Positions 44,159 through 47,569 of a DNA stretch of 64,000 bases are shown in pieces; position 1 is the first letter of the stretch, and each line of letters starts with the position of its first letter. Source of the DNA: Escherichia phage W143; the sequence record MZ189262.1. One strand, 5' to 3'. The translations under genes were made by a program, and so were the position numbers. The notes below the pieces were generated by a model. That model made no database searches and had not been told where the DNA came from. It saw only the letters and a list, made by a program, of their open reading frames with translations.

Positions 44159-44839
44159 TTATTTTAATGTTACGAAAGAAGAATTGCGTGTTTCACGAAT
44201 TAGAACTGATCCGTCGCGATTAATGTAATAAATTAAGCTAAATAAAGTTTGGTGTGCCGACGCATGTTCAAAACTAGTTGGGTGAGATTTCCAATCCGGA
44301 GTTTCAGCAATCCACTGATAAATCCACCAAGGAACAGTACAGAATCCTGGATTTTTTCCAATCAGCTGAAGATTCGGACTAAAGTTTTCCGGAAGAGTAA
44401 ATACAGACGGCTTTTCAGATTCAATAATCTCAGCTACAGCCTGTTCGAATTTTTCTTCAACAAAAGGAGTATCTTCAATCAAAACATCGGTATTTTCAGG
44501 AATTTTATCCGTTTCGACTACTTCAATTTTAATATCAGATTTAACCGGAGAATCAATCAGAAGTGCTGCTTCTGGATTGACTTCTTCATCGTCATATTTT
44601 AATCCCTCTGCAGCATCAGCAGCATTGATTAAGTCTTTAATAGATAACCCATCAGTCTCTGGCATAGGTTCACTAGCGAGCTTCTGGAGGGCTTCTTCAA
44701 TATCAACAACGATATTATCAAAAGATTTATTCTTTTTGACCTTTATACCAAACTGTTCAGCATATTCAGCTAATTTAGCTTTAGCTTCTTTATTATCATC
44801 AAGAGCCTTCAGCTCTGCAATATAATCTTTATCTATCAT
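44159..44839 (-). CDS. inh: inhibitor of prohead protease
   Basis: 226 aa acidic protein adjacent to hoc. Confidence 0.8.
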   Translation of the reverse strand: MIDKDYIAELKALDDNKEAKAKLAEYAEQFGIKVKKNKSFDNIVVDIEEALQKLASEPMPETDGLSIKDLINAADAAEGLKYDDEEVNPEAALLIDSPVKSDIKIEVVETDKIPENTDVLIEDTPFVEEKFEQAVAEIIESEKPSVFTLPENFSPNLQLIGKNPGFCTVPWWIYQWIAETPDWKSHPTSFEHASAHQTLFSLIYYINRDGSVLIRETRNSSFVTLK

Positions 44840-44852
44840 AATATTTCCTCAG

Positions 44853-44860
44853 TATAAATA
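44853..44860 (+). promoter_or_regulatory. late promoter TATAAATA for uvsW
   Basis: exact TATAAATA ~30 nt upstream of ATG 44890. Confidence 0.55.
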
Positions 44861-44889
44861 TAGATATATTTATTACATGGTATTTAGAC

Positions 44890-46401
44890 ATGACTGACAT
44901 TAAAGTACATTTTTATGATTTTAGTCACGTGAGAATTGATTGTGAAGAAAGTACATTTCATGAACTCCGTGATTTCTTTAGCTTTGAAGCTGATGGGTAT
45001 CGTTTTAATCCGAAGTACAAATATGGCCACTGGGATGGACGAATCCGTCTTTTAGATTATAATCGCCTTCTTCCGTTTGGTTTAGTCGGGCAAATTAAAA
45101 AGTTCTGCGATAACTTTGGCTATAAAGCTTGGATTGACCCGCAAATTAACGAAAAAGAAGAATTATCAAGAAAAGATTTTGATGAATGGCTTTCTAAGTT
45201 AGAAATCTATTCAGGAAATAAAAGAATTGAACCGCACTGGTATCAAAAAGATGCAGTGTTCGAAGGATTAGTTAATCGTCGTAGAATTCTTAATCTTCCA
45301 ACATCCGCAGGTAAATCTTTAATTCAAGCTTTGCTTGCACGTTATTATTTGGAAAATTATGAAGGTAAAATTCTTATCATTGTTCCAACAACTGCTTTAA
45401 CAACTCAGATGGCTGATGACTTTGTTGATTATCGTTTATTCAGTCATGCAATGATAAAGAAAATTGGCGGCGGAGCATCAAAAGATGATAAATATAAAAA
45501 TGATGCACCGGTAATTGTTGGTACATGGCAAACTGTAGTAAAACAACCAAAAGAATGGTTCTCACAGTTTGGAATGATGATGAATGATGAATGCCATCTT
45601 GCTACAGGAAAAAGTATTTCATCTATCATATCAGGTTTAAATAACTGCATGTTTAAATTTGGTCTATCGGGTTCATTACGTGATGGCAAAGCTAATATCA
45701 TGCAGTATGTTGGAATGTTTGGTGAAATATTTAAGCCGGTAACGACTTCTAAATTAATGGAAGATGGACAAGTAACTGAGTTAAAAATTAATAGTATTTT
45801 TCTTCGCTATCCCGATGAGTTCACTACTAAATTAAAGGGAAAAACTTACCAAGAAGAAATAAAAATTATTACTGGGCTCAGTAAAAGAAATAAATGGATC
45901 GCTAAATTAGCTATTAAACTTGCGCAAAAAGATGAAAACGCTTTTGTCATGTTTAAGCATGTATCACATGGTAAAGCTATTTTCGATTTAATTAAAAATG
46001 AATACGATAAAGTTTATTACGTATCAGGGGAAGTTGATACCGAAACACGCAACGTAATGAAAACCCTAGCTGAAAACGGTAAAGGAATAATTATAGTAGC
46101 TAGTTATGGTGTATTTTCTACCGGTATTTCAGTTAAAAATCTGCATCACGTTGTTTTAGCGCACGGTGTTAAATCTAAAATTATTGTATTGCAAACAATA
46201 GGTCGCGTATTACGTAAGCATGGTTCTAAAACAATCGCAACGGTCTGGGACCTCATAGATGACGCGGGCGTAGTTTCTAAATCAAAAACATCTTCTAAAA
46301 AATACTCGCATTTAAACTATCTTTTAAAACATGGACTTGATCGTATTCAGCGTTATGCTGATGAGAAGTTTAATTATGTGATGAAAGAGGTTAAACTTTG
46401 A
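44890..46401 (+). CDS. uvsW: UvsW SF2 DNA/RNA helicase
   Basis: 503 aa; helicase motifs (PTSAGKS Walker A, DECH box). Confidence 0.9.
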   Translation: MTDIKVHFYDFSHVRIDCEESTFHELRDFFSFEADGYRFNPKYKYGHWDGRIRLLDYNRLLPFGLVGQIKKFCDNFGYKAWIDPQINEKEELSRKDFDEWLSKLEIYSGNKRIEPHWYQKDAVFEGLVNRRRILNLPTSAGKSLIQALLARYYLENYEGKILIIVPTTALTTQMADDFVDYRLFSHAMIKKIGGGASKDDKYKNDAPVIVGTWQTVVKQPKEWFSQFGMMMNDECHLATGKSISSIISGLNNCMFKFGLSGSLRDGKANIMQYVGMFGEIFKPVTTSKLMEDGQVTELKINSIFLRYPDEFTTKLKGKTYQEEIKIITGLSKRNKWIAKLAIKLAQKDENAFVMFKHVSHGKAIFDLIKNEYDKVYYVSGEVDTETRNVMKTLAENGKGIIIVASYGVFSTGISVKNLHHVVLAHGVKSKIIVLQTIGRVLRKHGSKTIATVWDLIDDAGVVSKSKTSSKKYSHLNYLLKHGLDRIQRYADEKFNYVMKEVKL

Positions 46402-47090
46402 ATTATAAATTAATATACGATAATTTAATTAATAGAGCCCAGAATCGGGCTCGCCTTAATGGATACACTGAAACTCATCATATAATTCCTAGATGTATGG
46501 GCGGTACAGATGATAAGTGTAATTTGGTAGAACTAACAGCTGAAGAGCATTTTATAGCTCATAAACTTTTAGCTAAAATTCATCCAAACCATTACGGTAT
46601 AATTAAAGCCGTTATATGTATGGGAATGAATTCAAATACTCATGAAAGACACGTTAATAAATCTTACGCCTGGGAACGTCGTAAAATGGCAAAACTTCAA
46701 TCAGGTGAAGGTAATCCATTTTACGGAAAACACCATACGGAAGAACATAAACAATATATGTCAAAACTCATGAAAAATCGTCCAATTACGTGGGGAAGTA
46801 AAATTAGTAAAACTAAAAGAATGAACCCAACAAAATGGACTGAAGAAGCTAAAAGATTGCATTCTATCAATCAATCAGGTAAAAATAATGGCATGTATGG
46901 AAGGAAACATTCCGCTAAATCTATTCAGAAAATTAAAGATAACATGCCAGATAATTCAGGAGCTAATAACCCAGCTGCTAAACCTATAGAAGTAAATGGT
47001 GTTAAGTATAAATGCATGAAAGATGCTTCTAAAGCTACTGGATTATCAATGTACAAACTAAGAATACTTAGAAAAACAGTTAATTTATAA
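46398..47090 (+). CDS. HNH homing endonuclease with NUMOD3 DNA-binding repeats (TTG start)
   Basis: 230 aa; I-HmuI-like HNH catalytic motif (ETHHIIPRCMGGTDDKCNLVELTAEEHFIAH) plus two NUMOD3-like motifs (GKHHTEEHKQYMS, GRKHSAKSIQKIKD); TTG start overlaps the uvsW stop with an AAGAGG SD. Confidence 0.75.
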   Translation: MNYKLIYDNLINRAQNRARLNGYTETHHIIPRCMGGTDDKCNLVELTAEEHFIAHKLLAKIHPNHYGIIKAVICMGMNSNTHERHVNKSYAWERRKMAKLQSGEGNPFYGKHHTEEHKQYMSKLMKNRPITWGSKISKTKRMNPTKWTEEAKRLHSINQSGKNNGMYGRKHSAKSIQKIKDNMPDNSGANNPAAKPIEVNGVKYKCMKDASKATGLSMYKLRILRKTVNL

Positions 47091-47102
47091 GGGCTTCGGC
47101 CC
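47091..47102 (+). terminator. UUCG-tetraloop hairpin (gggc-ttcg-gccc) between the HNH gene and uvsW.1
   Basis: starts 1 nt after the HNH stop and ends 3 nt before the uvsW.1 SD. Confidence 0.4.
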
Positions 47103-47115
47103 TTTGGAGAAAAAG

Positions 47116-47346
47116 ATGTTACTAGAATTTAAACAATTTCTTTATGAAGCTTCTATTGATGAATTTATGGGTAAAATTGCCTCTTGCCAAACATTAGAAG
47201 GTCTAGAAGAACTTGAAGCTTATTATAAGAAAAGAGTTAAAGAAACTGAATTAAAAGATACTGATGACATCTCAGTTAGAGATGCTTTGGCAGGAAAAAG
47301 AGCTGAATTAGAAGATTCAGACGATGAAGTAGAAGAAAGCTTTTAA
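47116..47346 (+). CDS. uvsW.1: UvsW.1-like small acidic helical protein; start placed at ATG 47116
   Basis: 76 aa from MLLEFKQFLYEASIDEF...; GGAG SD. Confidence 0.6.
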   Translation: MLLEFKQFLYEASIDEFMGKIASCQTLEGLEELEAYYKKRVKETELKDTDDISVRDALAGKRAELEDSDDEVEESF

Positions 47347-47401
47347 ATTAAAAAAGGCCCAACCAAAAAGGAAGGGCCAAAACTATAGACTAAAGGTCAC
47401 A

Positions 47402-47569
47402 CTATAGCAAAAGTTGTGTTTCATTTAATTGTTCTTCCGAACTTTCTGAAACTGGTAGTTCTTTAATGTAATTATAGCAAGGCCCAGGATGTACAGGACC
47501 TTTGTCTGTTTCAACAACCAATGCAGAATCGATTGGAGTTTTACAGACAACACAAATCTTATCTGACAT
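47402..47569 (-). CDS. small Cys-containing ORF, 55 aa (uvsY.-2-like position; below ORF-track cutoff)
   Basis: ATG 47569 with GAGGAG SD; reads MSDKICVVCKTPIDSALVVETDKGPVHPGPCYNY... Confidence 0.4.
   Translation of the reverse strand: MSDKICVVCKTPIDSALVVETDKGPVHPGPCYNYIKELPVSESSEEQLNETQLLL

Follow-up and report, generated by a model that had tools for sequence, protein, structure and literature searches.

A putative MobE-type HNH homing endonuclease gene lodged in the 3' end of uvsW in Escherichia phage W143 and other T4-like phages

MobE of phage T4 is a free-standing HNH homing endonuclease encoded between nrdA and nrdB (Wilson & Edgell 2009, PMC2790892). Its gene is promoterless, its target region is polymorphic in carriers, and a stem-loop 27 nucleotides (nt) after the AUG of mobE acts as a weak intrinsic terminator (PMC2790892). 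A second T4 enzyme, the GIY-YIG endonuclease SegE, is encoded between inh and uvsW and targets uvsW (PMC2988022). Here we analyse an open reading frame (ORF) of 230 amino acids (aa) at the 3' end of uvsW in Escherichia phage W143 (MZ189262.1), a T4-like coliphage (Tequatrovirus); the stretch studied, referred to as the window, comprises 64,000 nt. Identity over the region is 99% with Escherichia phage KFS-EC3 and with Shigella phages SH-1 and SH-2, and 97% with T6. A review table of T4 endonucleases has no entry at this site, because T4 lacks the insert. The ORF is probably a free-standing MobE-type HNH homing endonuclease gene whose spread through T4-like phages, possibly recent, came about by homing into the uvsW 3' end; its product is most likely late-expressed and translationally coupled, and its activity is a prediction. 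The element is of an ordinary kind, a further uncharacterised Mob-type free-standing homing endonuclease that several genomes already annotate. What is new is the exact junction anatomy, previously undescribed, the conservation across genera, the one-sided linked flank and the conserved internal hairpin.

The nearest named and characterised relative of the protein is MobE (RB59; 42% identity, 73% coverage, E = 3e-26), and the protein matches PHROG 655 'homing endonuclease' (4e-61). In an alignment of 28 homologues, reaching down to 34% identity, H28, N42, H51 and H55 are invariant, as are P31 and G36, and E25, H27 and C33 are nearly so; the HNH motif that the original prediction had recognised is therefore a conserved one. 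An AlphaFold2 model (mean predicted local distance difference test score 84, ~94 across residues 1-70) contains beta strands at residues 25-28 and 43-46 and a helix at 48-61, with the HNH residues on this beta-beta-alpha unit. As modelled, the protein has the general-base histidine on strand 1, the asparagine on strand 2 and the metal-binding helix histidine that characterise the HNH (beta-beta-alpha-metal) superfamily. The HNH region also has weak PDB matches to the HNH domains of group II intron maturase and Cas8f.

The two NUMOD3 repeats of the original prediction were recovered by Pfam (PF07460, two stretches, E = 1.3e-13, 51 bits against a cut-off of 20.4). I-TevI_DNA-bd (PF20987) is matched weakly (0.03; below threshold on its own, 14.7 against 27), and the I-TevI DNA-binding domain (1i3j) is the sole PDB sequence match under E = 0.01 (E = 0.006, residues 157-216); Foldseek returns it for the same residues with a probability of 1.00 and a template modelling (TM) score of 0.58 on the target. 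Judging from the G-x-N-N/Y-G-x-x-H motif at 160-170, residues 157-216 probably include the second NUMOD3 stretch and a helix-turn-helix, that is, a NUMOD3-type element followed by a helix-turn-helix as in I-TevI. On these matches, the protein combines an HNH domain of MobE type with a DNA-binding end of I-TevI type. It differs from MobE in its two NUMOD3 repeats and I-TevI-like C-terminal end; unlike I-TevI, which is a GIY-YIG enzyme encoded in an intron, the W143 nuclease is of the HNH type and its gene is free-standing. I-HmuI of phage SPO1 is intron-encoded and has a variant, HNH_3-type motif. It resembles the W143 protein as an HNH-superfamily phage homing endonuclease with an extended two-domain layout, and the protein had at first been called I-HmuI-like. 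That comparison is not supported: I-HmuI gave no PDB sequence match at E <= 1 and is absent from the 50 Foldseek matches listed, MobE being closest.

The junctions were defined by comparison with nine insert-free phages: T4 (assembly OZ209023), T2, RB9, OES_C-1, IME339, KIT06, PP01, RB51 and SCS4. These read ...GTA ATG AAA ACA GTT AAT TTA TAA GGGCTTCGGCCCTTTGGAGAAAAAGATG at the uvsW end, ...ATG AAA ACA GTT AAT TTA TAA being followed by GGGCTTCGGCCC. In the window, the endonuclease ORF ends with ...AGA AAA ACA GTT AAT TTA TAA GGGCTTCGGCCC..., and uvsW with ...GTG ATG AAA GAG GTT AAA CTT TGA. This places the insert within uvsW, after codon 499, and not wedged between uvsW and uvsW.1 as first described. 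The AAA found at both cassette ends leaves a 3-nt ambiguity in its position (46384-47072 to 46387-47075). The original tail of uvsW is identical and contiguous with ...ATGAAA in all insert-free phages examined. Because the cassette length of 689 bp is 3n+2, the endonuclease frame enters this tail in its original frame and uses its stop, so that the native signals preceding uvsW.1 are untouched. At its 5' end, in turn, the cassette carries a second, diverged uvsW tail (EVKL-stop), which keeps uvsW intact; its GAG GTT creates a Shine-Dalgarno (SD) sequence and its CTT TGA creates the TTG. The same GAGGTnnnnnnTTGA element is also present in PSD2002, Bp7 and the orthologous locus L013. In these respects, a start overlapping the stop of the host gene and an ORF ending on captured host codons, the W143 gene is unlike mobE.

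The spacer ahead of uvsW.1 was left unchanged. The UUCG hairpin noted after the ORF does precede the uvsW.1 SD, but it belongs to the ancestral spacer and not to the insert: hairpin and SD are found at this position in each of the nine phages without the insert, T4, T2 and RB9 included, and are identical in seven, KIT06 differing in one stem base and the SCS4 record having an N there. In the window GGAG (47106-47109) and then the uvsW.1 ATG (47116) come after the stem-loop; the end of the gene, initially set at 47115, has to be moved back to 47090, the remainder being intergenic hairpin and SD. Some 90% of related phages have an insert-free junction, and neither this distribution nor the HNH alignment refutes the original prediction, which had named both as tests. 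An IMG/VR pattern scan for the left junction returned two loci only and added nothing.

The same arrangement is found beyond Tequatrovirus. Orthologues with 55-70% identity occur in Jiaodavirus-type Klebsiella phages (e.g. Roth16), Dhakavirus (e.g. PSD2002), Morganella phage Rgz1, one more isolate (L033, MT446411) and six contigs from metagenomes (Logan). Throughout the 12 orthologue lineages examined, uvsW and uvsW.1 flank the gene, whose start overlaps the uvsW stop as NTGA. Capture of the uvsW tail recurs in other genera: insert-free Dhakavirus QL01 and JS98 have a uvsW ending with ATGAAACAGGTGGATTTATGA, which is the exact 3' end of the PSD2002 endonuclease ORF, and L033 has two tail copies that hardly differ (...ATTAAACAGGTGGAAATTTGA and ...ATTAAACAGGTGGAAATATAA). 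In insert-free Dhakavirus and Jiaodavirus the uvsW.1 ATG overlaps the uvsW TGA and an SD-like sequence lies in the uvsW tail, so that the start region of the endonuclease gene would seem to duplicate the coupling junction between uvsW and uvsW.1.

The same uvsW/uvsW.1 site is occupied in Escherichia phage Bp7 (Dhakavirus) by gp019 (260 aa, annotated H-N-H endonuclease; L027 724-1506, NC_019500), which has in common with the W143 gene the GAGGT...TTTGA 5' element, a start at TTG, homology across the N-terminal HNH region and an internal hairpin. Its alignment with the W143 protein is limited to the N-terminal ~140 aa (32% identity). Unlike the W143 protein, gp019 has an unrelated C-terminal half, no NUMOD3 and no captured uvsW tail at the ORF end; the pair looks like a case of domain swapping at one homing site.

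Presence of the insert is linked to the sequence of uvsW immediately to its left, much as carriers and non-carriers of mobE diverge in a polymorphic stretch of the conserved neighbour nrdB (PMC2790892). Note that the W143 site is at the uvsW 3' end rather than the nrdB 5' end, and the target is presumably different. Six carriers and nine non-carriers were aligned from uvsW to 700 nt past uvsW.1. The 28 fixed differences between the two groups all lie within 46273-46380, with none in the 700 nt downstream. Apart from this stretch uvsW is mostly 93-100% identical, its 5' ~200 nt being also divergent in a pattern that tracks segE. The differences are densest at 46273-46308, where they include amino-acid changes (17 mismatches with T4 in the 30-nt bin 46267-46296), and the nine nearest the insert (46314, 46332, 46335, 46353, 46356, 46359, 46368, 46377 and 46380) are all synonymous third positions. 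Beyond the ~120-nt stretch, carriers are no closer to one another than to non-carriers, and the locus is therefore mosaic, not clonal. Divergence confined to the left side is likewise seen between PSD2002 and QL01 (Dhakavirus) and between Roth16 and Roth01 (Jiaodavirus). The boundary itself reads TAC GTA ATG AAA in seven of seven insert-free phages from three genera, whereas all carriers have TAT and then another codon (GTG, GTC, GTT, GCG or ACT). Together, these patterns suggest that the linked flank marks the target; immunity and hitch-hiking both fit them. Dhakavirus and Jiaodavirus were considered as donors of the flank and rejected: to their uvsW (74-81% identity over the last 72 nt) the carrier-type flank stands no closer than T4 does. 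A perfect 10-bp palindrome, ATTACGTAAT, is present just 5' of the insertion point (window equivalent 46372-46381) in the non-carrier Tequatrovirus and Dhakavirus loci compared; it is broken in all carriers, the window reading ATTATGTGAT.

The insert-free phage OES_C-1 (L004, PQ553088) has the carrier-type block at 46273-46308 and non-carrier sequence from 46314 on; this naturally occurring recombinant sets the two candidate target regions apart. The nine proximal differences stay fixed against OES_C-1 as well, and chimeric queries of the phage collection found no insert-free phage with a carrier-type proximal flank and no carrier with a T4-type flank. These observations bear on where an active endonuclease would cut. 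A cut not at the junction but ~80-120 nt upstream of the insert (46273-46308) or farther, with obligatory co-conversion of the DNA between cut and insert, would refine the homing interpretation without excluding it, and we regard it as possible but on balance doubtful. It would account for linked differences lying solely left of the insert in three genera and for their density at 46273-46308, and it has a parallel in MobE, which nicks at nucleotides 122-126 of T2 nrdB within a region polymorphic between carriers and non-carriers (PMC2790892). However, OES_C-1 shows the distal block to be separable from the insert, whereas the nine differences at 46314-46380 never are, and the junction-proximal AAATTTAAYTACGTAATGAAA, which non-carriers from three genera have kept, is changed in every carrier.

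Among ~498 Tequatrovirus-type records matching the junction, 48 have the insert (both counts include duplicate RefSeq/GenBank entries), including T6, PST, ACG-C40, HY03 and UFV-AREG1, in agreement with the original view of a free-standing gene; among close relatives its occurrence is sporadic. Most carrier records annotate a homing endonuclease (T6, PST and ACG-C40 among them), some under the names 'mobD', 'MobE' or 'group I intron endonuclease'. Four features expected of Mob-type elements are found together here: Mob homology, sporadic occurrence at a precise site, a location outside any intron or intein, and linked flanking polymorphisms. Carrier copies are 97-99.6% identical to each other. 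In BF15 (MW822007, L017 1999-2586), a 4-bp deletion (ATCA, window equivalent 46866-46869) shifts the frame after residue 156; this copy, without the I-TevI-like DNA-binding end, is either decaying or affected by a sequencing error.

Such figures could also describe a defunct or domesticated remnant that no longer homes, is inherited vertically in one Tequatrovirus clade or serves another role (competition/exclusion), its flank reflecting clade history. The near-identity of the 48 carriers' copies fits common descent, one of them is frameshifted, and defunct endonucleases, I-TevIII for one, are known from T4 (PMC2790892). We nevertheless consider a remnant unlikely, given that in the remaining carrier records listed the ORF aligns full-length as a single tblastn piece, that the catalytic residues are invariant, that carriers are mosaic outside the ~120-nt stretch, that segE is present in some carriers and absent in others, and that the same element occupies the same site in several genera.

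The start of the ORF follows from its frame. An in-frame TAA at 46392-46394 lies upstream, and the earliest ATG is codon 34 (46497-46499, the M of CMGG), 3' of the HH codons of the catalytic motif; this leaves TTG 46398-46400, which overlaps the uvsW stop TGA at 46399-46401, as the sole possible canonical start. GAGG at 46386-46389, 8 nt 5' of the TTG, is the SD, within uvsW coding sequence as anticipated; the 230-aa frame and its TTG were likewise upheld by the frame reading and by the starts of the orthologues. At this position the 12 lineages have TTG (6), ATG (5) or GTG (1), and the N-terminal MNY..IY..L is conserved among them. Since a change that is synonymous for uvsW would yield an ATG, nothing forces the use of TTG. 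Initiation at the codon-34 ATG, which would omit the first catalytic histidines, or a fusion to UvsW by frameshifting is very improbable: a 146-aa UniRef 'homing endonuclease' entry (UFV-AREG1) does span only 62% of the protein, and TTG is rare as a start, but the shared start codon of all 12 lineages and the correctly spaced GAGG speak for the TTG, and the fusion is rejected, since the -1 frame is open only from 46395 and GGUUAAACUUUGA puts no slippery heptamer in the uvsW frame. An endonuclease encoded in a group I intron, as GenBank labels it in G2540-3, G8 and G28, can be dismissed: within 44800-47500 no Rfam family is matched, even at E <= 1, phages without the insert have separate uvsW and uvsW.1 ORFs (PMC1524935), and the insert is nearly all ORF, with no space for an intron core.

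As regards expression, TATAAATA at 44853-44860, the consensus of T4 late promoters, is the only plus-strand match between 44853 and 47346, none lying inside the endonuclease gene. It is likely to drive a uvsW-endonuclease-uvsW.1 transcript, and by analogy with mobE the endonuclease gene is probably promoterless, late and dependent on upstream transcription. No convincing MotA-type middle promoter for uvsW.1 was seen in the 3' part of the endonuclease gene, where the search was by eye only, and a sigma-70 promoter scan gave 11 sites against 12.5 expected from shuffles, not above expectation.

Features shared with MobE are the N-terminal HNH domain, the probable dependence on an upstream transcript and a GC-rich hairpin that lies within the first few dozen nt of the ORF. 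A hairpin is present at ORF nt 33-60 in all 12 orthologues, that of the window included, every sequence being different; the region encodes a variable stretch of the protein. In 11 of the 12, none of 60 synonymous recodings of the peptide gives so stable a structure. The stem covaries: in the seven orthologues where it is 8 bp long, seven of its eight pairs differ between sequences yet remain canonical. The hairpin is probably the counterpart of the 5' internal terminator hairpin of mobE, from which it differs in having no poly(U) tract.

The sequences are compatible with the following course of events. The endonuclease would be read from the uvsW late transcript, having no late-promoter consensus of its own, and would be translated at a low level through coupling to uvsW termination and from a weak start codon, the conserved hairpin ~35 nt into the ORF further modulating expression as its mobE equivalent does. 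In mixed infection, the C-terminal NUMOD3 and helix-turn-helix elements would bind the uvsW 3' end, still uninterrupted, of a competing phage, the HNH domain at the N terminus would nick or cut near the bound site, and recombinational repair would copy the cassette together with the adjoining ~70-120 nt of uvsW. Carriers, we propose, would escape cleavage, their site being split by the insert and their linked flank carrying synonymous recoding.

A more elaborate version of this proposal, to which we give somewhat less than even credence, regards the element as a self-contained translational-coupling cassette that tracks the uvsW/uvsW.1 junction in at least four T4-like groups. The uvsW tail would have been duplicated, its last codons being also the uvsW.1 ribosome-binding region in Dhakavirus and Jiaodavirus: the upstream copy would end uvsW and launch the endonuclease via NTGA, and the downstream copy would end the endonuclease and launch uvsW.1 as it did originally. 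Hairpin and frequent TTG would keep expression low, and the recoded ~70 nt at the uvsW end, which break the TACGTA-containing sequence found in all non-carriers, would serve both as immunity determinant and as a mark of the target.

Several points weigh against the homing interpretation. The Pfam HNH match (PF01844) is below its gathering score (16.7 against 21.4 bits, E = 0.008). No U tract follows the internal hairpin in any lineage, so that it may not act as a terminator in the way the mobE hairpin does. The linked flank may have come along passively with the donor DNA instead of conferring immunity, and a copy identity of 97-99.6% fits a single recent sweep or vertical descent of a clade equally well. 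Initiation at TTG is deduced from frame logic and orthologue alignment, and a literature search found no paper describing this element or its protein and no published cleavage assay.

Table 1. Features of the uvsW-uvsW.1 region in the W143 window.
Feature	Positions	Strand	Description	Basis
Late-promoter match TATAAATA	44853..44860	+	~30 nt 5' of the uvsW ATG	pattern search
uvsW helicase gene	44890..46401	+	503 aa; last 4 codons and stop (46387-46401) insert-derived	ORF list
Insert-linked uvsW 3' stretch	46263..46386	+	77-78% identical to insert-free phages; candidate cleavage/immunity region	
Inserted cassette	46387..47075	+	689 bp (3n+2)	comparison with nine insert-free phages
Substitute uvsW tail GAG GTT AAA CTT TGA	46387..46401	+	EVKL-stop replaces TVNL-stop; carries SD and TTG	
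Endonuclease ORF	46398..47090	+	230 aa; TTG start; overlaps uvsW TGA as TTGA	
Internal GC-rich hairpin GAGCCC-AGAAUC-GGGCUC	46435..46452	+	37 nt past the start codon; predicted free energy -10.6 kcal/mol	
HNH catalytic region YTETHHIIPRCMGGTDDKCNLVELTAEEHFIAH	46464..46562	+	residues 23-55	conserved residues and model
First NUMOD3 repeat	46677..46763	+	residues 94-122	Pfam PF07460
C-terminal DNA-binding region	46866..47045	+	residues 157-216	I-TevI DNA-binding domain match
Original uvsW tail ACA GTT AAT TTA TAA	47076..47090	+	now provides the final 4 codons plus stop of the endonuclease ORF	
UUCG tetraloop hairpin AAGGGC-UUCG-GCCCUU	47089..47104	+	predicted free energy -9.3 kcal/mol; ancestral uvsW/uvsW.1 spacer	fold
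uvsW.1	47116..47346	+	76 aa; SD GGAG 47106-47109	Pfam UvsW-1, 1.5e-30

For annotation, it follows that the gene is to be called from TTG 46398 (shortened calls circulate, e.g. the 146-aa UFV-AREG1 entry), that uvsW of carriers ends on codons supplied by the cassette, and that the labels 'group I intron endonuclease' and 'mobD' are wrong. T6 as a carrier and T2 and T4 as non-carriers, all classical laboratory phages, make up a well-defined natural system in which homing could be studied. The candidate target is sharply delimited, near the boundary between TACGTAATGAAA and ACAG or at 46273-46308, and OES_C-1 separates these regions; Bp7 offers a domain-swapped relative at the identical site, and the internal hairpin a handle on the low expression of such genes. 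The current understanding of these elements stands, and the present one illustrates entry into the end of a coding sequence without damage to either neighbour.

The neighbouring uvsW product shows the Pfam domains UvsW_N (3.9e-43), ResIII, DEAD and Helicase_C, and no paralogue of the endonuclease gene is present elsewhere within the 64-kb window. SegE is a second selfish endonuclease associated with uvsW, of an unrelated family and encoded at the opposite end of the gene. The uvsW 5' ~200 nt of segE phages are divergent (74-85% identity), mirroring the 3' flank described above, and T6, PST and ACG-C40 carry both segE and the uvsW-tail endonuclease. In the window, segE is absent (44840-44889), though present between inh and uvsW in T4, T6, PST and ACG-C40. 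The first ~200 nt of the window's uvsW (44890-45090) are 74-86% identical to those of T4, RB9, T6, PST, C40 and KMB39, which have an ORF at the segE position, and likewise of SNUABM01, where this ORF is an unnamed 'putative homing endonuclease'; they are 95-100% identical to those of most phages without such an ORF. Exceptions are SCS4, with an unnamed ORF at the segE position and 93-97% identity, and OES_C-1, with 87% in the second 100 nt.

Two further foldings were considered around the start codon. An 11-bp AU-rich stem over the SD-to-TTG spacer (46365-46375 / 46389-46399) was rejected (z = -1.36; not conserved in Bp7 and PSD2002). In a second stem, UUGAAUUAU (46398-46406) pairs with AUAAUUUAA (46420-46428), the first U of the UUG pairing with A, which is impossible for an AUG start; it is predicted in the TTG-starting window, PSD2002 and Bp7 and not predicted in L013. 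Both arms encode conserved residues, so the stem is indistinguishable from coding constraint.

That uvsW and uvsW.1 are separate ORFs, as the original prediction concluded, is correct but was established in 2004-2007 (PMC1524935; PMC6486255). The T4 reference NC_000866.4 (L002 4180-4200) reads TTTAATAAGCTTCGGCCC where other T4 assemblies read TTTATAAGGGCTTCGGCCC; by this comparison it retains the old sequence error at uvsW/uvsW.1, because of which the two are annotated there as a single 587-aa gene. In IME339 (L005 1727-2017, MH051915), uvsW.1 contains a 60-bp tandem duplication, by which 20 aa (CQTLEGLEELEAYYKKRVK plus one residue) are repeated and the protein is 96 aa long.

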